From Propionibacteriales bacterium (GTDB lineage: Bacteria; Actinomycetota; Actinomycetes; Propionibacteriales; Nocardioidaceae), in the NCBI GenBank assembly GCA_026392415.1, contig JAPLCC010000016.1, forward strand, positions 2,503 through 66,502: 64,000 nt of DNA. The letters are read 5' to 3'. Both the position numbers and the translations under genes were made by a program. Within the stretch, counting starts at the first letter, position 1. The number at the start of each line of letters is the position of its first letter. Shown piece after piece: positions 2,151-62,601 of the stretch. The notes under the pieces were generated by a model that did not search any database, had not been told where the DNA came from, and was given only the letters and a program-made list of their open reading frames with translations.

Positions 2151-2190
2151 CTTGGCGCGAGCGACCCGATCCGGCCAGTGGCTCGCCGTA

Positions 2191-2335
2191 GGTTCGTCGA
2201 GTAGCGGCGAGCGCCAGCGGGCCGCGTATCGAGACGCGGTGAGCCGGTTGCGGGCGTCTCGATATGCCCTCGCCTGGCGGCTCGGGCTACTCGACGAACC
2301 TGGGCTGCCTGGCGGCTCGGGCTACTCGACGAACC
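2191..2335. repeat. REP/REPIN-like cluster (GTAG family): inverted pair plus a partial third copy
   Basis: Unit 2191-2237 (ggttcgtcgaGTAG-hairpin-gtatcgagacgc) and inverted unit 2254-2300. The last 29 nt of the second unit are duplicated at 2307-2335. Confidence 0.85.
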
Positions 2336-2342
2336 TACTGGC

Positions 2343-4684: not shown

Positions 4685-7405
4685 TCACCTCGCCCCGACG
4701 AGGCCGTCGCGGACCGCATCGCTGCGGCCGGGAGGTTCGGCGGTGGCCGGGTGCAGGAGTGCTGCCCGACCCGCCTCGAGCCGTGCGACCGGGATCCGGA
4801 ACGGCGAGCAGGAGACGTAGTCCACGCCCAGCTCCTCGAAGACGTGGATGGAGGTCGGGTCGCCGGCGTGCTCCCCGCAGACACCCACCGGGACCCGGTG
4901 TCCGGTGCCGCGGGCGCCGGACACGGTCATCGCGACGAGTGCGCCCACCCCTTCACGGTCGATCGACTCGAACGGCGAGGTGCGCAGCACACCGACTTCG
5001 CGGTACTGCGAGAGGAAGGCTCGTTCGGCATCGTCACGGGAGATGCCCCAGGTGAGCTGGGTCAGGTCGTTGGTGCCGAGGGAGAGGAACTCGGCGCGCT
5101 CCGCCAGTCGTCCGGCGACCACGGCGGCTCGCGGTGTCTCGACCATCGTGCCGAGGCGGTAGGGCACCCGGCCCCGGCGCTCGGCGACCTCGTCGGCGAC
5201 CTCCCCGACCAGTCGCGCGACCAGGTCGAGCTCCTCCACGGCGCTGACGAGCGGCACCATCAGCTCGAGGTCGAAGGGGCGCCCGCGCTCGCGCAGGTCT
5301 GCGGCCGCCTCGAAGGCGGCGCTCACCTGGGCGCGCGCCAGCTCGGGGCGGAGGATCGCGAGCCGAACCCCGCGCAGGCCGGTCATCGGGTTCTCCTCGT
5401 GGATCCGCCGCACCGCTGCGAGCCGACGAACCGCAGCGTCGGTCAGCGAACCCTGCTGGCGAGCCATCGCGACCCGAACCGAGAGCTCGGTGAGGTCCGG
5501 CAAGAACTCGTGCAAGGGGGCGTCGAGGAGCCGGATCGTCACCGATCGACCATCCGCCGCGTCGAGAATCGCAGCGAAGCCCTCTCGCTGGAGAGCGGTG
5601 AGCTCGTGCAGCGCCTGGTCCCGTTCGACCTCGTCACCGAGGAGCACGCGCTCGACGAAGGTGCGGCGATCGCCGAGGAACATGTGCTCGGTGCGACACA
5701 GGCCGATGCCCTCGGCGCCGAACCGCATCGCACGGGAGACGTCGGCGGCGGAGTCCGCATTGGCGCGCACACCGAGGCGTCGAACGGAGTCCGCGTGGGC
5801 CAGGAGCCGGGCGACCGCGGGAGCAACCGACCCGCCGTCCACGCCCTCGTCGAGCCACCGCGTCACCTCGGACGCGATGGTGCGGTGCCGCCCGCGAAAG
5901 ACCTGTCCGCTGGCACCGTCGAGGGAGATCAGGTCACCCTCTGCGAAGACAGGTCGCCCGGAAAGGGACACCTGCCGGCGGTCGGTGTCGATCTCGAGAG
6001 CATCGACGCCACACACGGCCGGAAGGCCCATTCCGCGCGCGACCACTGCAGCGTGCGAGGTGCGCCCGCCGCGGCCCGTCAGGACACCTTTCGCCGCGAC
6101 CATGCCCGGAAGGTCTTCGGGCCGGGTCTCGCTGCGGACCAGGATCACGTCCTCGCCGCGGCCAGCCATCGTGACGGCGGTGGCGGAGTCGAGCGCGATC
6201 CGGCCGACGGCCGCACCCGGGGAGGCGCCGAGCCCCACCACGACCTCCCGTCCGGCCGACGTGAGGTCGAGCTGGGGGACGAGCAGCTGCGTGAGCTGTT
6301 CGCCGGTGACCATGAGGAGTGCCTCGTCCTCGGTGATCCATCCCTCGTCGACCAGGTCGACCGCGATGCGGAAGGCCGCGGTGGGGCTCCGCTGTCCGAC
6401 CCTGGTCTGCAGAATCCAGAGTCGGCCGTCCTCGACGGTGAACTCGATGTCACACATGTCGCGGTAGTGGCGCTCGAGGGTGCCCATGATCGAGCGCAGT
6501 CGCCGGTACGACGCGGGGTCGACGTCGCGCAACTGGCTCAACGGCATCGCGGTGCGGACGCCGGACACGACGTCCTCGCCCTGTGCGGTCATCAGGAAGT
6601 CGCCGTAGTCGCCCGGCTCCCCGGTCGCCGGGTCGCGGGTGAACGCGACACCGGAACCGGACGCCGTACCGCGGTTTCCGTAGACCATCGCCTGCACGTT
6701 GACCGCCGTACCGAGGTCGTCGGCGATGCCGTGCTGTCGTCGGTACAGACCGGCACGCTGCGTGGTCCAGGACGCAAGCACGGCCTCGATGGCCAGGTCG
6801 AGCTGCTCGCGGGGGTCCTCGGGCACCTCACGTCCTGCGATCTCGGCGCACAACGCCTTGTTCCGCTCGGCCACCTCTCGCAGGTCGGCCGCATCCAGGT
6901 CGAGATCGTCCTCGACGCCCCGCGCGGCCTTGACTGCCGCGAGCTCGTCGGCGAACCGCGCTGCTGGAACACCGAACACGGTCTCGCCGAACATCTGGAG
7001 CATCCGGCGGTAGCAGTCGTGGGCGAAACGTTCGTCGCCGGTCGCGGCCGCCAGCCCGCGGACGCTCCGATCGTTGAGGCCGAGGTCGAGAATCGTGTCC
7101 ATCATTCCGGGCATCGACGTGGCGGCACCGGAGCGCACGGCGAGGAGCAGTGGATCCTCCGGGTCGCCGAACCGGCGACCGGCCTCCGCCTCCAGCAGCT
7201 GCAGCTCACGATCGAGCTCGCTCGCCAGTCCCGGCGGAGTGCTGGCCTGCGCCAGGAAGTACCGGCACGCCTGCGTCGTGATCGTGAAGCCCGGCGGCAC
7301 CGGCAGGCCGAGCTGCACCATCTGGGCGAGGTCGGCGCCCTTGCCGCCGAGCAGCGCGCGATCGGGTGTGCCGGGGCAGCTGAAGGAGTACACGTATCGG
7401 GTCAC
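4685..7405 (-). CDS. ppdK: Pyruvate, phosphate dikinase
   Basis: LLGGKGA, VRSGA..SMPGMMDT, phospho-His motif TSHAAVVARG, GIGLCRTEHMF, GTNDLTQ, catalytic Cys in CGEHAGDP. Confidence 0.97.
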   Translation of the reverse strand: MTRYVYSFSCPGTPDRALLGGKGADLAQMVQLGLPVPPGFTITTQACRYFLAQASTPPGLASELDRELQLLEAEAGRRFGDPEDPLLLAVRSGAATSMPGMMDTILDLGLNDRSVRGLAAATGDERFAHDCYRRMLQMFGETVFGVPAARFADELAAVKAARGVEDDLDLDAADLREVAERNKALCAEIAGREVPEDPREQLDLAIEAVLASWTTQRAGLYRRQHGIADDLGTAVNVQAMVYGNRGTASGSGVAFTRDPATGEPGDYGDFLMTAQGEDVVSGVRTAMPLSQLRDVDPASYRRLRSIMGTLERHYRDMCDIEFTVEDGRLWILQTRVGQRSPTAAFRIAVDLVDEGWITEDEALLMVTGEQLTQLLVPQLDLTSAGREVVVGLGASPGAAVGRIALDSATAVTMAGRGEDVILVRSETRPEDLPGMVAAKGVLTGRGGRTSHAAVVARGMGLPAVCGVDALEIDTDRRQVSLSGRPVFAEGDLISLDGASGQVFRGRHRTIASEVTRWLDEGVDGGSVAPAVARLLAHADSVRRLGVRANADSAADVSRAMRFGAEGIGLCRTEHMFLGDRRTFVERVLLGDEVERDQALHELTALQREGFAAILDAADGRSVTIRLLDAPLHEFLPDLTELSVRVAMARQQGSLTDAAVRRLAAVRRIHEENPMTGLRGVRLAILRPELARAQVSAAFEAAADLRERGRPFDLELMVPLVSAVEELDLVARLVGEVADEVAERRGRVPYRLGTMVETPRAAVVAGRLAERAEFLSLGTNDLTQLTWGISRDDAERAFLSQYREVGVLRTSPFESIDREGVGALVAMTVSGARGTGHRVPVGVCGEHAGDPTSIHVFEELGVDYVSCSPFRIPVARLEAGRAALLHPATAEPPGRSDAVRDGLVGAR

Positions 7406-29114: not shown

Positions 29115-29332
29115 TGACCACCCTGCTGTCGTCGCTCGGGATCCTGTTCCCCGAGACCCTCGTGCGGTCCCAACCGTTCGCGATCCTTGCAGCCTTCGTC
29201 GCGATCAACACCGTCATCTACGTCGCGCTCACCGTCGCCAAGGCGATGCCGAAGATCTACTTCGGTGACTACCTGCCCCGCAAGTACGAGCGTTCGGAGA
29301 CCCGGAGCATCCACCCCGACGGATCGCGCTAG
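29114..29332 (+). CDS. Small membrane protein (72 aa) coupled to GT2
   Basis: TGATG overlap with the GT2 stop. One long hydrophobic segment (FAILAAFVAINTVIYVALTVA) and a charged tail. Confidence 0.75.
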   Translation: MTTLLSSLGILFPETLVRSQPFAILAAFVAINTVIYVALTVAKAMPKIYFGDYLPRKYERSETRSIHPDGSR

Positions 29333-29519
29333 GTCTCGAGACGGGCCGCGAGACGGCCCTCCTCGACCAACGCCGGACCGCACGTTGGTCGAGGAGGTTG
29401 CGAAGCAACCGTCTCGAGACCCCAGCACGCACGTTGGTCGAGGAGGTTGCGAAGCAACCGTCTCGAGACCCCGGCACGCACGTTGGTCGAGGAGGTTGCG
29501 TAGCAACCGTCTCGAGACC
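29332..29519. repeat. REP-like array (GGAG family): one unit plus three inverted tandem copies
   Basis: Unit 29332-29372, then the 39-nt cgttggtcgaGGAGgttgc-gNa-gcaaccgtctcgagacc at 29383, 29432 and 29481 (49-bp period, near-identical 10-nt linkers). Confidence 0.9.
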
Positions 29520-29531
29520 CCCGGCACGTGC

Positions 29532-33491: not shown

Positions 33492-33511
33492 CAATCGCAC
33501 AGGGGGTGCGA

Positions 33512-33550
33512 CGTTGGTCGAGGAGGTTGCGCAGCAACCGTCTCGAGACC
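33512..33550. repeat. Single REP-like unit (GGAG family)
   Basis: cgttggtcgaggaggttgcgcagcaaccgtctcgagacc: 38/39 identical to the copies at 29383-29519, same orientation. Confidence 0.9.
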
Positions 33551-33551
33551 G

Positions 33552-35597
33552 CTACGAAGCCGGCGTCGTCTCCTTCTTCGCAGACACTCCCGACGCGCCC
33601 GCCGCCGAAGCGAACAGCCAGCCGTAGAAGGCCAGCAACGCAAGCCAGGACGCGATCACCACGCCGTACATCGTGGTCCACAGCCAGACCGGCACGTCCG
33701 GCTTGCGCTCACGCTGCAACAGGAAGGGTTCGTGGACGAAGGCGACCGAGGTGTTGTTGTCGGCCAGCACCAGTCCCGATGCGGGGCCGTCGATGGCGGG
33801 GTCCTCCGGCATGTGCACCGGGATCGAGACCATCGTGGTCGGTGCGAGGTGCAGCCGGACCAGCACCTTCCAGCCTCCGTAGATCGGCAGCGGCTCGGAG
33901 CTGCGGAACTCGCCACGGCGACCCGTCGGGTCCATGGCGACGCTGAGCACCCCGTTGCCGGGCACGTTCGGGTCGTCCTCCCGCTCCCCCTGGTAGGCGA
34001 GCGCGGAGAGCCACACGGCGTCGTCGGCCGCATCGACCGGATCGGTCAGGACGGTCACCACGGTCGTGCAGCCGTCGGTCCCGGCGCACTCGTCCGCGTA
34101 GGTCACCCGACCGGTGATCACGTCGGTACCTGCGACGGGCTCGTAGGTCGTACGGCAACCATCGCCGTCGCAGTCCTTGACCACGTCGACCTCTCCCGCG
34201 CTCGTCGGTGGCGCGAAGATCGCCATCAGGACGACGAACGCGAGGGTGCCGGCCGTTCCTGCCCACCGTCCCCGCGCATCCATGCCCTCCCGCAGCGGAG
34301 CGGACTCCACCGGCAGGTCGGCGATCTGCTCCAGGTGACGGGCGAAGGACCAGCCGAGCAGGCCGCCACCGAGAGCCGCGACCCCTCCGACGGCGAGCAT
34401 CAGCGGCATCTGCTGGGTGTCCGGCGGCAGGGGGTACGGCAGGAACAGGTCCATCCACCACCACTCCGTCGCCAGCCCCACGGTGCCGGCCAGCAGGCCG
34501 CCGGTCGCTGCGAACAGCGGGCCGCGGTTGCGCACGACCAGGGCCAGTGCCTCGATGCTCAACGCGGCGCCGAGGAACAACAGCCAGTGGGCACGGTGGA
34601 TGTCCGGCACGGGCAGCGTGATCGCGTAGATCAGGAGGCGGACGCCGGTGTAGGTGAGCCAGGCGACCAGGGCGCCGCCGGGACCGAAGAGCAGGCGGCC
34701 GGCAGTGAAGATCCAGGCCGTCAGGAAGCCGGAGATGATGAACATGGTCGCGGCCGGGAACTGCGGGATCCCGAGGTCGAACTCCATCAGGAAACCGACC
34801 GGGATGATGCACAGACCGACGACGATCGTCAGGAAGAGGCGTGTCGCCCAGGCGCTACGGTCCGCGAGCACGCTCGGCGGCGCCTCGCGTCGTACGGGCG
34901 GCAGGATCCGGCCGAACAGTCGCAGCCCACCGGTCGCCAGGGCACCGAACGGCAACCATCGAACGGCCGGCGCGCGGCCGACCTGGGCACCCTCGGCGTA
35001 CAGCAGGGGCAGGGCCAGGATGCAGGTGACGGCACCGCCGATCATCATCACGTGCGTGGGACCCCACTCGGTGACGTCCTGGCCGAAGAGGCGGTGCCAG
35101 ACGTCGTCGGCGGGGAATCCCGCGGCGGCGATCAGGCCGGCACCGAGCAGGACGAGCGTGCCCATCGGAACCCGCCACTGCGGCGTGAGCCGGACGGTAC
35201 GCCGCGGCAGGGGCGCCTTGGCCAGGCCGGCGGAGATCACGCCGGCGGCCAGGAAGCCGAAGATGCCGAGCATGATCGGGAAGTGCGACGGGTTGGCCAG
35301 GGGGCCTTCGTCGCGCCCGACCTGCATGTGGATCGGGACGTCCCAGTAGACGCCGAAGGCACACGAGATGAGCGAGACCAGGGCGAGGTAGCTCGGCAGC
35401 CCGGCCCACCGCGGCAGTCCGTCGACGGCGGCGACCCGGTCGGCGAGGCGACCGAGGAAGGTGGTCTTCCCGTCGCGCTCACGCATCAGGAAGATCCCGA
35501 TCGGGATGTAGATGACGGCGAAGGCCGCGGCCGCGATCAGGACCTGATCGAAGGCGGCTCCACCGGTCGGTGGCGACTGTTCCACTGCAAGCACCAT
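33552..35597 (-). CDS. Uncharacterised polytopic membrane protein with two DxxxH...P[ST]H motifs and an extracytoplasmic domain
   Basis: 681 aa, GGAGG RBS, about 12 hydrophobic segments, a ~170-aa acidic soluble domain with two Cys pairs, final TM helix. Confidence 0.85.
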   Translation of the reverse strand: MVLAVEQSPPTGGAAFDQVLIAAAAFAVIYIPIGIFLMRERDGKTTFLGRLADRVAAVDGLPRWAGLPSYLALVSLISCAFGVYWDVPIHMQVGRDEGPLANPSHFPIMLGIFGFLAAGVISAGLAKAPLPRRTVRLTPQWRVPMGTLVLLGAGLIAAAGFPADDVWHRLFGQDVTEWGPTHVMMIGGAVTCILALPLLYAEGAQVGRAPAVRWLPFGALATGGLRLFGRILPPVRREAPPSVLADRSAWATRLFLTIVVGLCIIPVGFLMEFDLGIPQFPAATMFIISGFLTAWIFTAGRLLFGPGGALVAWLTYTGVRLLIYAITLPVPDIHRAHWLLFLGAALSIEALALVVRNRGPLFAATGGLLAGTVGLATEWWWMDLFLPYPLPPDTQQMPLMLAVGGVAALGGGLLGWSFARHLEQIADLPVESAPLREGMDARGRWAGTAGTLAFVVLMAIFAPPTSAGEVDVVKDCDGDGCRTTYEPVAGTDVITGRVTYADECAGTDGCTTVVTVLTDPVDAADDAVWLSALAYQGEREDDPNVPGNGVLSVAMDPTGRRGEFRSSEPLPIYGGWKVLVRLHLAPTTMVSIPVHMPEDPAIDGPASGLVLADNNTSVAFVHEPFLLQRERKPDVPVWLWTTMYGVVIASWLALLAFYGWLFASAAGASGVSAKKETTPAS

Positions 35598-41613: not shown

Positions 41614-41645
41614 CCTGGTCACCGGCCTTCGGGCCGGTGATCAGG
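41614..41645. terminator. Hairpin terminator between convergent genes
   Basis: cctggtcaccggcc-TTCG-ggccggtgatcagg (14-bp stem with one G-U, UUCG loop), overlapping the nadE stop. Confidence 0.8.
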
Positions 41646-43719
41646 CCTCGGGCACGTTCTCCAGTTCGGCCAGCCAGGCAACCGCACTCGCGTCGGACGG
41701 CATCCGCCAGTCACCGCGCGGTGACATGGTGCCGCCCGCGCTGACCTTCGGACCGTTCGGCAACGCCGACCTCTTGAACTGGCTGCTGAAGAAGCGCTGG
41801 GTGAAGACCACGAGCCACCGGCGCACCGTCGCCAGGTCGTAGGACGCCCGCCGCTCCTCCGGGAATCCAGGCGGCCACTCCCCAGCGGACTGGTCGTGCC
41901 ACGCGTGCCACGCGAGGAAGGCGATCTTGCTCGGCCGGTAGCCACGCCGGATCACGTGGTAGAGCGTGAAGTCCTGGAGCGCGTACGGACCGACGGAGTC
42001 CTCGGTCGCCTGGGGCTTCTCACCGGCCGTCGCCGGGATCAGCTCGGGGGTGATCTCCTGGTCGAGGATCTCCTGCAGGACCTTGTCCGCGTCGTCGTCG
42101 TAGTGCCCGTCGTGCAGCTGGTCGGTGTCGATCACCCACCGGATCAGGTGCTGGATCAGGGTCTTCGGGACACCGGCGTTGACGTTGTAGTGCGACATCT
42201 GGTCACCGACGCCGTAGGTGCACCACCCGAGTGCGAGCTCGGACAGGTCGCCGGTGCCGAGCACGATGCCGCCGCGGTGGTTGGCCAGGCGGAACAGGTA
42301 GTCGGTGCGCAGTCCGGCCTGGACGTTCTCGAAGGTGATGTCGTAGGTCGGCTGCCCGTCGCTGTAGGGGTGATCGAGGTCGGCCAGCATCTGGGTCGCC
42401 GCCGGCTTGATGTCGAGCTCGGCGAACGTGCAGCCCAGCGCAGTCGCGAGCCGGGTCGCGTAGGACTTCGTGGTCTCGCCCGTTGCGAAGCCCGGCATGG
42501 TGAAGGCGTGGATGTCGCTGCGCGGGCGCCCCAGCCGGTCCATCGCCTTCGCGGCGACGATCAGCGCGTGGGTCGAGTCGAGACCACCGCTGACCCCGAT
42601 CACGATCTTCGGCTGCCCGATGGCCCTGAGGCGCTGCTCGAGGCCGGACACCTGGATGTTGTAGGCCTCGTAGCAGTCGAGCGCGAGCCGCTCCGCGTTG
42701 TCGGGGACGAACGGGAACCGGTCGACCTTGCGAAGCAGGCCGATGTTGCCGGCGGGCGGGTCGAGGGTGAACTCGATGGTCCGATGGCCCAGGTTGGTCG
42801 AGTAGTCCTGCGAGGAACGAGCGGGGCGTATCGAGACCCGGTTGTCGTCGAACGTCCCCTGGCGCTGGCGTTCCTGGCGCAGCCGGTCGAGGTCGACGTC
42901 GACCACCGTCCGTCGAGGGCCCTCGGGGAATCGCTCCGACTCCCCCAGCAGGTCGCCCATCTCGTAGACCATCGTCTGGCCGTCCCACGACAAGTCCGTG
43001 GTCGACTCACCCTGGCCGGCGGCCGCGTAGATGTAGGCGGCATTGCAGCGTGCGCTGGCGCTGCGAGCCAGCAGGTGCCGGTCCTCGGCGCGCGCGATGG
43101 TGATCGGACTTCCGGAGAGGTTGGCCAACAGGGTCGCGCCGGCGAGGGCCGCGTTGGCGCTCGGCGGGATCGGGACCCACATGTCCTCGCAGATCTCGAC
43201 GTGCAGCGCGAATCCCGGCACGTCGGTCGCGCGGAAGATCAGATCGTTGCCGAAGGGCACGTCCTGGCCGATCACCTCGATGACACCGTCCGACTGGGTC
43301 GCGCCCGACGCGAACCAGCGGGCCTCGTAGAACTCCCGGTAGGTCGGCAGGAACGACTTCGGAGCCACACCGAGGATCTCGCCGCGATGGATGACCACCG
43401 CACAGTTGTAGATGCGGTTGAGGCTCGAGAGCGGCGCACCCACCACGATCACCGGCAACAGGTCCCGACTCGCCTCGACGATGTCACCGATGGCCACCTG
43501 CACCGCGTCGAGGAGCACGTCCTGCAGGAACAGGTCGTCGACGGCGTACCCGGTCAGGCCCAACTCGGGGAACACCGCCACCGCCACGCCCTCGTCGTGG
43601 CAGGCCCGGGCCTGCTCGATCGTGCGGGCAGCGTTGGACGCGGGGTCGGCAAGGGCCACCGGCAGGGTGACCGCGGCAACCCGGGCGAACCCGTGGGCAT
43701 AGGCCGAGTAGAAGTCCAC
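41641..43719 (-). CDS. nadE: Glutamine-dependent NAD+ synthetase
   Basis: Nitrilase domain ([34 protein letters not shown]) and synthetase domain ([37 protein letters not shown]). Confidence 0.97.
42792..42838. repeat. REP-like unit (GTAG family) inside nadE
   Basis: ggttggtcgaGTAG-tcctgcgaggaacgagcggggc-gtatcgagacc. Translated as [17 protein letters not shown]. Confidence 0.85.
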
Positions 43720-60817: not shown

Positions 60818-62601
60818 GCCGCGAACGGCTTCTCCTCGCCTTCTGCGCGGTCGCCGTCGCCTTCGCGGCGGTCGACACGTACGTCGTCGTGCTCGCCCTG
60901 CCCGACATGATGGGCGGCGTGGGCCTGGGAGGCGATCAACTCCAGCGAGCCGCACCGATCGTGTCCGGCTTCCTCCTGGGCTACGTCGCGATGCTGCCCC
61001 TCATGGGACGGATCGCCGACCTGCGGGGACAGGTGCCGGTGCTGGCGATGTCGCTGGTGCTGTTCTCCATCGGCTCGCTGGTCACGGCGGTGTCCTACGA
61101 CCTCCCGAGCATGGTGACCGGCCGCTTCCTGCAGGGCGTGGGCGGCGGCGGACTGGTGCCGGCGACGATGTCACTGGTCGCCGCTCTCTACCCGATCGAG
61201 CGCCGCGGACTCCCCCTCGGCATCGTGTCCGCAGTTCAGGAGTTCGGCAGCGTGCTGGGTCCGCTGTTCGGCGCCCTCGTGCTCTCCTTCACCTCGTGGC
61301 GCGGCATCTTCGCGATCAACCTGGCTGGCGGTGTCCTGCTCGTCGTGATCGTCGGCGCCCTGGCCCGGGGGCGCCTCGATACGTCCTCGCCTGGCGGCTC
61401 GGACTACTCGACGAACCTGGCCCTAGGCTCGTCGAGTGCCGGTCGCGAGGAACGAGCGACCGGTGTATCGAGACGCCCGCAACTCCCCGCCAGGCTCGTC
61501 ACCCTCGCCCTCCTCGCCACCACCCTCGCCGCCGGCCTGATCACCTTCCTCGAACCTGCCTCCATCCAGCGTGATCTGACCTGGGGCCAGGTCTTCATCC
61601 CGTACGTCGACGGTGGCAGCCGCTGGATCACGCCGATCGGCCTGGTCACGGTCGGGGCGTTCGTCGCCTTCCTGCTCTGCTGCTGGTTCCTGCCAAGGCC
61701 GCTGGTGGACCTCCGCGGGTGGTTCGACCACCTGCTCGCAGCCGACCTGCTCGGCGCCGGCCTGCTCGCCGCAGCGCTCGGCGGGATCGTGCTGGCGTTC
61801 GCGACCGCCGACCCGGAGGTGGCCGTCTTCTCCCCGCAGGGGCCGTGGTTCCTCACCGGGTCGGCCCTGGCCGTCGTACTCCTTCTCGTGCACCTGCGCC
61901 GCGCCGACGACCCGATCGTGCCGCGCGGTGCACTGCGGGCGATGCCGGCATGGGGTGCGCTGGTCGTCAGCTTCCTCGTCGGTTGGGCGCTGATCGCGGC
62001 GCTGGTCGACATCCCGTTGTTCGCCCGGACCACGACGCACCCGAACTCGCAGCTCGGGGCCGCGCTGGTGCTGTTGCGGTTCCTCGCCGCGCTGCCGGTC
62101 GGCGCGGTCGTCGGCGGCTGGCTGCTGCGACGGCTCAACGCCGGCGTCCTCACGGCGGTCGGCATGGCCACGGCTGGCGCCGCCTTCCTCGCCATGGCGC
62201 AGTGGGACAGGACCAGCCTCGACGGGTTCGCGTCGAACGTGCCGCTGGTGCTCGGCGGATTCGGCTTCGGCCTCGCCCTGGCGCCGGTCAACGCCGCCAT
62301 TCTCGCCAACACCGATGACGACGCCCACGGTCTTGCCAGCGCTCTTGTCGTCGTGGCCCGGATGGTCGGCATGCTGGTCGGCATCTCCGCGCTCACCACC
62401 ATCGGCCTGCGCCGCCTCTACGCCGCGCAGGCCGAGGACCCAACGCTCGACCCCCGCGATCTCGGCATTCTCCAGGAGCAGGCGGTGTTCATGGGCGCGG
62501 CGGTCGCGGCCTTCGCTGCCGCCGCCCTCGCGCTCGTGCTCTTCGCCCGAGCCGAGACCCGCGACGTGGACACTGCAGAGGTGCTTCGCAGCGCCGGATA
62601 G
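60814..62601 (+). CDS. MFS transporter, P55 / Rv1410c-like (DHA2)
   Basis: ATGA overlap with the lipoprotein gene. DTYVVVLALPDMM, QRAAPIVSGFLLGYVAMLPLMGRIADLRG, GRFLQGVGGGGLVPAT. Confidence 0.9.
   Translation: MSRERLLLAFCAVAVAFAAVDTYVVVLALPDMMGGVGLGGDQLQRAAPIVSGFLLGYVAMLPLMGRIADLRGQVPVLAMSLVLFSIGSLVTAVSYDLPSMVTGRFLQGVGGGGLVPATMSLVAALYPIERRGLPLGIVSAVQEFGSVLGPLFGALVLSFTSWRGIFAINLAGGVLLVVIVGALARGRLDTSSPGGSDYSTNLALGSSSAGREERATGVSRRPQLPARLVTLALLATTLAAGLITFLEPASIQRDLTWGQVFIPYVDGGSRWITPIGLVTVGAFVAFLLCCWFLPRPLVDLRGWFDHLLAADLLGAGLLAAALGGIVLAFATADPEVAVFSPQGPWFLTGSALAVVLLLVHLRRADDPIVPRGALRAMPAWGALVVSFLVGWALIAALVDIPLFARTTTHPNSQLGAALVLLRFLAALPVGAVVGGWLLRRLNAGVLTAVGMATAGAAFLAMAQWDRTSLDGFASNVPLVLGGFGFGLALAPVNAAILANTDDDAHGLASALVVVARMVGMLVGISALTTIGLRRLYAAQAEDPTLDPRDLGILQEQAVFMGAAVAAFAAAALALVLFARAETRDVDTAEVLRSAG
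61371..61476. repeat. Inverted REP pair (GTAG family) inside the MFS gene
   Basis: Unit 61371-61417 is 43/47 identical to intergenic unit 2254-2300. Inverted unit at 61426-61476. Frame is preserved. Confidence 0.9.

Follow-up and report, generated by a model that had tools for sequence, protein, structure and literature searches.

A GTAG-tagged palindromic repeat in frame within the inter-domain linker of NAD+ synthetase in a Nocardioides genome

In a 64,000-nucleotide stretch of a Nocardioides genome (Propionibacteriales bacterium, assembly GCA_026392415.1, contig JAPLCC010000016.1, positions 2,503 to 66,502; hereafter the window), the gene nadE, which encodes glutamine-dependent NAD+ synthetase, contains in its reading frame one unit of a repetitive extragenic palindromic (REP) family. 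It is very probable that nadE acquired a selfish or neutral GTAG-tagged REP-type copy within its coding sequence on the branch that led to this species. The evidence consists of the membership of the unit in a dispersed repeat family, its reading frame, the absence of the encoded peptide from relatives, the predicted disorder of the encoded segment, and a genome-wide pattern of in-frame copies. The genome comprises 4.19 Mb in 60 contigs (69% GC, 98% complete), and its assignment to Nocardioides follows the names of the best homologues. The relevant features of nadE, in window coordinates, are as follows.

41641..43719, minus strand: nadE, glutamine-dependent NAD+ synthetase, 692 amino acids (aa) (open reading frame and translation, 3DLA match, Pfam)
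42790..42837, plus strand (canonical), antisense to nadE: family-B REP unit, 48 nt = 16 codons, residues 295-310 (pattern, profile, codon register)
42797..42805, plus strand: head motif GTCGAGTAG, with the GTAG tag at its end abutting the stem (conserved in 77 strict copies)
42806..42826, plus strand: hairpin with stem TCCTGC, loop GAGGAACGA and stem GCGGGG (fold; complementary stems in other copies)
42827..42837, plus strand: tail motif CGTATCGAGAC (pattern, family consensus)
42778..42789, minus strand: leftover native linker codons GHRT, residues 311-314 (aligned with the conserved xFRT of relatives)

On the plus strand, the nadE unit reads CAGGTTG-GTCGAGTAG-TCCTGC-GAGGAACGA-GCGGGG-CGTA-TCGAGAC; it is a short GC-rich palindrome, as GTAG REPs are. 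The first-pass annotation of this DNA had placed an in-frame unit of 47 nt at 42792-42838. The 17-residue segment that it described was recovered as residues 294-310, whereas the unit itself measures 48 nt and occupies 42790-42837; R294, the conserved arginine of DDNR, lies outside the unit. The GTAG tag stood directly before the stem in 77 of 77 strict copies and in the nadE copy, and its last G can pair in the predicted fold. The loop GAGGAACGA is one of three hairpin subtypes, and copies with this same loop have different, complementary stems. As the same annotation had noticed, both this loop and the peptide DYSTNL are common to the nadE unit and to an insert in an MFS transporter gene at 61369-61483. 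When the strict pattern GTCGAGTAG-N(15-35)-TCGAGAC was applied, three matches were found in the window and none in 100 shuffles. A profile of 77 genomic copies, run with nhmmer against the whole genome, gave the nadE copy 46.6 bits (E = 9.5e-12), a score typical for family B. Across 30 loci retrieved by a NadE query (144 kb in total), the nadE copy was the only significant family-B match (E = 3.3e-13). The plus strand of the unit folded with -16.9 kcal/mol (z = -2.6), and the mRNA strand with -5.4 kcal/mol (z = +0.55), no better than shuffled sequence; the mRNA-strand hairpin is weak because two stem pairs that are G-U on the plus strand become A-C mismatches. We find no support for a regulatory RNA structure in the nadE mRNA.

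The host gene was examined by alignment, domain searches and structure prediction. NadE aligned end to end with the Mycobacterium tuberculosis NAD+ synthetase structure PDB 3DLA (E = 0, residues 2-688), and the Pfam domains on record for the protein are CN_hydrolase (PF00795) and NAD_synthase (PF02540). It combines a nitrilase-type glutaminase carrying the Glu-Lys-Cys triad (E52, K121, C177) with a synthetase carrying the SGGxDS P-loop (SGGLDS, S377-S382), the composition that defines glutamine-dependent NadE, and these residues were invariant in 60 homologues. A PF02540 search identified nadE as the sole NAD synthetase gene of the genome; the other match was a weak PP-loop similarity in an unrelated 664-aa open reading frame (ORF). 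The flanks of nadE on the two sides of the REP had coding scores of 0.42 and 0.80 (codon-usage log-odds). The REP-coded segment falls between the CN_hydrolase and NAD_synthase domains, where the first-pass annotation had put it, and appears as an insertion in the alignment with M. tuberculosis NadE. In an AlphaFold2 model built on a 60-sequence alignment, the predicted local confidence (pLDDT) was below 50 at residues 288-309, which predicts an unstructured loop and agrees with the surface linker that the first-pass annotation had expected. This segment is preceded by a helix at residues 277-286 (block 281-290 averages pLDDT 62) and followed by a strand at residues 313-317 (block 311-320 averages pLDDT 91). 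In the model, residues 288-309 are thus what a disordered surface linker looks like. Work on M. tuberculosis has treated NadE as a drug target. There the enzyme is essential (PMC6946656), and nadE is probably essential in the present organism as well.

The linkers of NadE orthologues from 27 same-genus or same-order genomes were aligned, and the 120 best homologues from a set of 5.8 billion proteins served as a second sample. The REP peptide was present in none of the 27 orthologues and in none of the 120 homologues. From DDNR to the (V/I)EF strand, the linker was mostly 10-13 aa long in relatives (typically RTHDERxxxFRT) versus 20 aa here; in the nearest clade it reads DDNR-HQARVETGDYDV-IEF. 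The M. tuberculosis linker has 12 aa after DDNR versus 20 here, and the extra residues here are REP-coded. Counted instead to the following motif, 10 aa separate DDNR from RRIDF in 3DLA versus 18 aa between DDNR and RTIEF here, the figures given in the earlier annotation. That annotation had also turned on whether relatives have shorter linkers and whether the likeness exceeds chance; relatives' linkers are shorter, the pattern occurred in 0 of 100 shuffles, and E is about 1e-11. The closest relative by NadE (G011, 83% identity) has a genome that is 99% complete. Compared with relatives, about 7-8 native linker residues are missing in NadE, and only GHRT follows the 16 REP-coded residues.

Other linkers of unusual sequence or length were also inspected. 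In L002, the closest relative, the linker gave a weak family-B match (E = 0.04) on the opposite strand relative to the gene, which was rejected as a chance likeness of native ...GTCGTCGAGTTC to the REP head. None of the longer linkers examined in NadE of L003, L009, L011, L014, L024, L028, P0053, P0065, P0082 and P0032 matched the family profiles significantly, and no repeat family of the G006 genome matched the NadE linker of that genome. A fuzzy head/tail pattern proved too loose, with about 5 chance matches per 65 kb, and it matched in the linker only in L075. Longer linkers are common to several Nocardioides clades: those of the GLEARLARTST type were seen in P0053, P0087, P0094, P0075 and L024, and those of the GFEARFARTSTT type in P0065 and L009. 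The DNA of both types starts with GG(T/C)(C/T)TCGAG and ends with ACCTCGAC, a family-A-like arrangement without statistical support; these linkers may be old, decayed REP insertions.

The nadE unit belongs to one of two repeat families that are abundant in this genome. When copies were counted by family profiles (E <1e-4), 236 non-overlapping copies were obtained, 98 of family B and 138 of family A. Family B has the architecture GTCGAGTAG-hairpin-CGTATCGAGAC. The consensus of family A, seen in about 100 copies, is GTCGAGGAG-GTTGC-GCA-GCAAC-CGTCTCGAGAC, with CGTC-TCGAGAC after the stem; here CGTC adjoins one stem end, as in CGTC-tagged REPs. The two families have the outer frame GTCGAG ... TCGAGAC in common. 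Their high copy number, dispersal, mainly intergenic position (85% are not in-frame intragenic) and occurrence as singles, inverted dimers and arrays are those of GTAG REPs, and among the non-coding copies roughly every second one lies no more than 200 nt from another. The label REP used in the first-pass annotation therefore holds for a palindromic GTAG-tagged family, but is not supported in the strict sense of elements mobilised by a REP-associated tyrosine transposase (RAYT), as no RAYT was found.

To what extent such copies enter coding sequence was measured with a codon-usage log-odds score trained on 1260 long ORFs with high GC3. A copy was called in-frame intragenic when one frame was open through the copy and 120 nt on each side, with both flanks scoring >0.25. 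By this definition, 35 of the 228 scorable copies (15.4%; 19 of family A and 16 of family B) lie in frame inside genes, in line with the earlier suggestion that there would be many genome-wide. The number is a lower bound: one unit of the MFS doublet, the first, escaped the test because the second lay in its flank. Random 48-nt windows passed the same coding test in 61% of cases, compared with 15.4% of REPs, which corresponds to an approximately 4-fold depletion (p = 4e-46). The 35 copies are spread over 34 ORFs, and 32 of the copies are solitary. A Pfam scan covered 30 of the 34 hosts (L061-L063 were left out) and found a family in the same frame in 29 of them; L060 had no match. The hosts include two biotin carboxylases, penicillin amidase, 2-oxoacid:ferredoxin oxidoreductase, NuoG, NAD-glutamate dehydrogenase, CysS, a Ser/Thr kinase, Nnr, two CobB/CobQ-type amidotransferases, two acyl-CoA dehydrogenases, an M13 peptidase, an SNF2 helicase, Mfd, class II ribonucleotide reductase, PurC, CcsA, an ABC transporter and an MFS transporter, among others. 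Many of the copies occupy gaps between Pfam domains or segments longer than the profile. Two of the 35, in a thioredoxin ORF (L034) and a DUF4194 ORF (L036), are uncertain and may precede the true start codon.

Both orientations and every stop-free frame were used; only the frame containing TAG was unused. Otherwise there was no firm frame bias (family A, chi-square p = 0.075, n = 18), a property that the first-pass annotation had proposed to test along with the count of intragenic copies. Recurrent REP peptides were LVEEVAQQPSRD, GSRDGRGATSST, GLETVAAQPPRP, GSSSAGREER..GVSRR and RLDTSSPGGSDYSTNL. Profile scores did not differ between intragenic and other copies (p = 0.22 and 0.39). The idea that intragenic copies are older or have weaker hairpins was discarded, as their fold energy was no different from that of others (p = 0.19 to 0.96).

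The same loops were found to carry REPs in other genes and species. In Nocardioides donggukensis (P0104, GCA_014842875.1), the NadE linker is 30 aa long (nadE at L073:10001-12115) and contains the following unit.

L073:10892-10935, antisense to the gene, in frame: family-A REP in the N. donggukensis nadE linker, encoding GLDTVAARPARPP (E = 3.5e-11)

This unit is identical at 31 of 33 positions to another copy in that genome, which has 6 strict copies; a 12-nt partial direct repeat, GACACGGTCGCT, follows it. The NadE REP peptides of the two species come from different families and different frames and have no common sequence. Judged from these sequences, REPs have entered the NadE linker on at least two occasions, with a different family in each of the two species. 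A similar situation was observed in an acyl-CoA dehydrogenase. In the present genome, a family-B REP lies in a loop of this enzyme (C20:88689-88747), and the orthologues of G011 and G016 lack the REP peptide; in the same loop, the G002 orthologue carries a family-A unit (…SRDGRCATSST…; L071:1845-1885, nhmmer E = 8.7e-14). The G002 gene is apparently split by a TAG stop further upstream. For CysS, the orthologues of five relatives lack the family-A peptide that is present here. Independent REPs in the same NadE and acyl-CoA dehydrogenase loops are what one would expect if random insertions persist only in a small number of permissive loops. A further in-frame copy was seen in a fusion ORF of nicotinate phosphoribosyltransferase and an isochorismatase-type (PncA-like) protein (L039, C22:176307-178238), the linker of which carries the family-A REP peptide EVEEVAQQPSRD (C22:176896-176941). 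In G011 the same fusion is REP-free and its linker is longer, and in four other relatives the two are separate genes.

We propose that a REP copy entered the inter-domain linker of nadE, and we infer that this insertion came with or before the loss of about 7-8 native residues. The copy would have survived because its 48 nt amount to 16 codons, its antisense frame is stop-free, the encoded peptide is small and hydrophilic, and the linker between glutaminase and synthetase is variable and unstructured. NadE would therefore stay functional, and the REP, which is probably neutral, would have no role in the enzyme. The translated copies, 35 or more, would then be the survivors of purifying selection against REPs landing in coding DNA.

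Several observations weigh against this proposal. The best non-self NadE homologue is only 88% identical (residues 200-420), and with this as the best match, the 5.8-billion protein set contained no same-species or sister-species sequence with an empty site. The net linker gain is +8 to +10 aa for a unit of 16 aa, and the gain is similar in CysS (+11) and in the acyl-CoA dehydrogenase (+9); simple cut-and-paste would not on its own produce such values, and in nadE the unit did not go cleanly into a linker of the present form. Moreover, the hairpins of intragenic copies are as stable as those of intergenic ones, which could mean that the copies are recent or that some structural constraint acts on them. 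Finally, no RAYT or IS200-type Y1 transposase (PF01797) was found in this genome.

The discrepancy between a 16-aa unit and a smaller net gain fits either trimming by later deletions or one-step replacement of native sequence, the comparators being no closer than about 83-88% identity. In the second case, a REP donor would have overwritten the native linker through a repair or gene-conversion-like event, and the repeats would spread by host recombination and repair with no dedicated transposase. Such templated replacement would suit the figures for nadE, cysS and the acyl-CoA dehydrogenase, in each of which 14-17 aa are REP-coded and roughly 3-9 native residues are lost for a net gain of +8 to +11, and it would also suit the failure to find a RAYT in REP-rich genomes. 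Loop lengths, however, vary among relatives anyway, and later deletions can explain the numbers equally well with the nearest comparators only about 80-88% identical; we regard replacement as a very improbable account. Alternatively, the insert might have been put to use, by tuning the geometry or flexibility of a linker that positions the ammonia tunnel in the octamer, or because the palindrome serves as a regulatory site, for instance one that makes translation pause between domains, is cut by an RNase or is bound by a nucleoid protein. The linker does join the two catalytic domains, and in M. tuberculosis NadE their coupling is under regulation (PMC6946656); a second species also has a REP in it, and intragenic hairpins are no weaker than intergenic ones. 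Yet the REP peptides of the two species are unrelated in family, frame and sequence, most Nocardioides NadE proteins carry no insert at all, the mRNA-strand hairpin is no better than shuffled, and the same units are scattered in more than 30 unrelated proteins; a function for the insert thus seems very improbable. That the case reflects a chance likeness, an assembly artefact or a decaying pseudogene is hardly credible. Repeats can be misassembled in a 60-contig draft genome, but the E-values of about 1e-11 to 1e-13, the preserved frame with its two coding flanks, the conservation of all catalytic and P-loop residues in the only NAD synthetase gene, and 34 further in-frame cases of the same pattern all argue otherwise. 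Insertion of a selfish or neutral REP copy accordingly remains the explanation that we favour.

How these repeats spread was approached through searches for RAYT and through their distribution. PF01797 was not found in the other REP-rich Nocardioides genomes sampled; among 41 related genomes it occurred in one (G018), which has no copies of either strict REP pattern. Strict-pattern counts for the two families were 73 and 105 in this genome and 0 in the closest relative, G011. The distribution in the genus is patchy, with 121, 43, 11, 11 and 8 strict family-B copies in five genomes; most others have none. We also entertain, as a doubtful though not far-fetched proposition, that Nocardioides GTAG/CGTC-type repeats spread without a RAYT or Y1 transposase and repeatedly colonise the same permissive loops of essential enzymes in different species (the NadE linker in two, an acyl-CoA dehydrogenase loop in two), partly overwriting native residues. 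If true, it would imply an unknown, possibly repair-templated copying of REPs that would continually supply free-living Actinobacteria with new linker variants, and several other long NadE linkers (GLEARLARTST, GFEARFARTSTT) would be old, decayed insertions.

The remaining copies in the window, in which an Rfam scan gave no family match, are listed below.

61369..61483, plus strand: family-B inverted doublet in frame in the MFS transporter gene, encoding RLDTSSPGGSDYSTNL and then ALGSSSAGREERATGVSRRPQL (MFS_1 Pfam match of the host ORF)
2187..2339, no strand assigned: intergenic, REPIN-like family-B inverted doublet (2187-2304) with a 16-nt spacer, plus a partial third unit (inverted repeat, profile)
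29327..29525, no strand assigned: four intergenic family-A units, GTCGAGGAG-hairpin-CGTCTCGAGAC (inverted repeats, profile)
33508..33554, plus strand: single intergenic family-A unit (profile)

At many sites of the genome, family-B units likewise form REPIN-like inverted doublets with a conserved spacer of 16-20 nt (…GCAGTGAGCCGG / CCGGTTGCGGGC…). Family composition differs sharply between species: the 121 strict family-B copies of G014 are mostly one 34-nt variant that recurs every 105-210 nt or so in long arrays, and G014 has no strict family-A copies. Family-A-like arrays stand just beside nadE in G016 and G010 (L004:1018-1481; L011:813-1430 and 4813-5046), and the array near nadE in G016 has at least 7 tandem units at a spacing of about 50 nt.

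These data describe translated palindromic repeats at scale in a free-living, high-GC actinobacterium, in at least 35 proteins that include NadE, CysS, NuoG, PurC and ribonucleotide reductase. For annotation, hydrophilic inserts such as ...DYSTNL, LVEEVAQQPSRD and GSRDGRGATSST in Nocardioides proteins are to be read as repeat-derived, and neither as domain features nor as sequencing errors. The in-frame copies also provide a natural form of linker-scanning data on where essential enzymes, including NadE, tolerate 15-20 extra residues. Moreover, an abundant, recently amplified GTAG/CGTC-tagged family without a detectable RAYT raises the question of the mobilising activity.

The M. tuberculosis enzyme (3DLA, 3SYT, 6OFC) has the same two domains and the same catalytic residues as the NadE studied here, and differs in its linker of 12 aa versus 20. 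In-frame palindromic repeats are usually linked with Rickettsia and a few Proteobacteria. Rickettsia palindromic elements (RPEs) lie in frame in many unrelated genes, including essential ones, and add surface peptides while function is kept. RPEs are reportedly the subject of work by Ogata and colleagues in 2000. The Nocardioides repeats resemble RPEs in having in-frame copies in unrelated ORFs with the hosts intact, a likeness in the way they work that does not establish homology. Unlike them, RPE-1 is longer (about 100-150 bp) and resides in an alphaproteobacterium that is obligately intracellular and has a reduced genome. A second comparison is with REPIN-RAYT systems, said to have been described by Nunvar in 2010, by Bertels and Rainey in 2011 (PMC3116915) and by Ton-Hoang in 2012. 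The present family is similarly GTAG-tagged and often arranged in inverted doublets with a conserved spacer (window 2187-2304). A single-copy RAYT gene (Y1 transposase, PF01797) was sought in this genome and not found, so that the defining feature of REPIN-RAYT systems is missing here. RPEs have been reviewed in PMC3184786 and PMC10969869. The closest parallel in form is given by Di Nocera, De Gregorio and Rocco (2013, BMC Genomics 14:522; PMC3733652), who sorted REPs from 8 phyla into GTAG- and CGTC-tagged super-families; Actinobacteria are not mentioned in that survey. There, CGTC REPs have no dedicated transposase, REPtrons can be missing, REPs occur inside known genes in several species, and different REPs are found near the same site in orthologues, for example in Xanthomonas recB (PMC3733652). 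Unlike those REPs, the repeats studied here combine both tag types in one outer frame, are accompanied by no RAYT, and are about 15% coding. Like them, they are short GC-rich stem-loops with an unpaired tag beside the stem (GTAG in family B; CGTC at the other stem end in family A), present in many copies as singles, inverted dimers and arrays that are mostly intergenic, with a minority in frame, including in housekeeping proteins. In-frame REP events as such are therefore already known from other bacteria; what is new is the host group (Nocardioides), the scale (about 15% of copies coding), the absence of a RAYT from the genomes searched that are rich in REPs, and the repeated use of the same loops.

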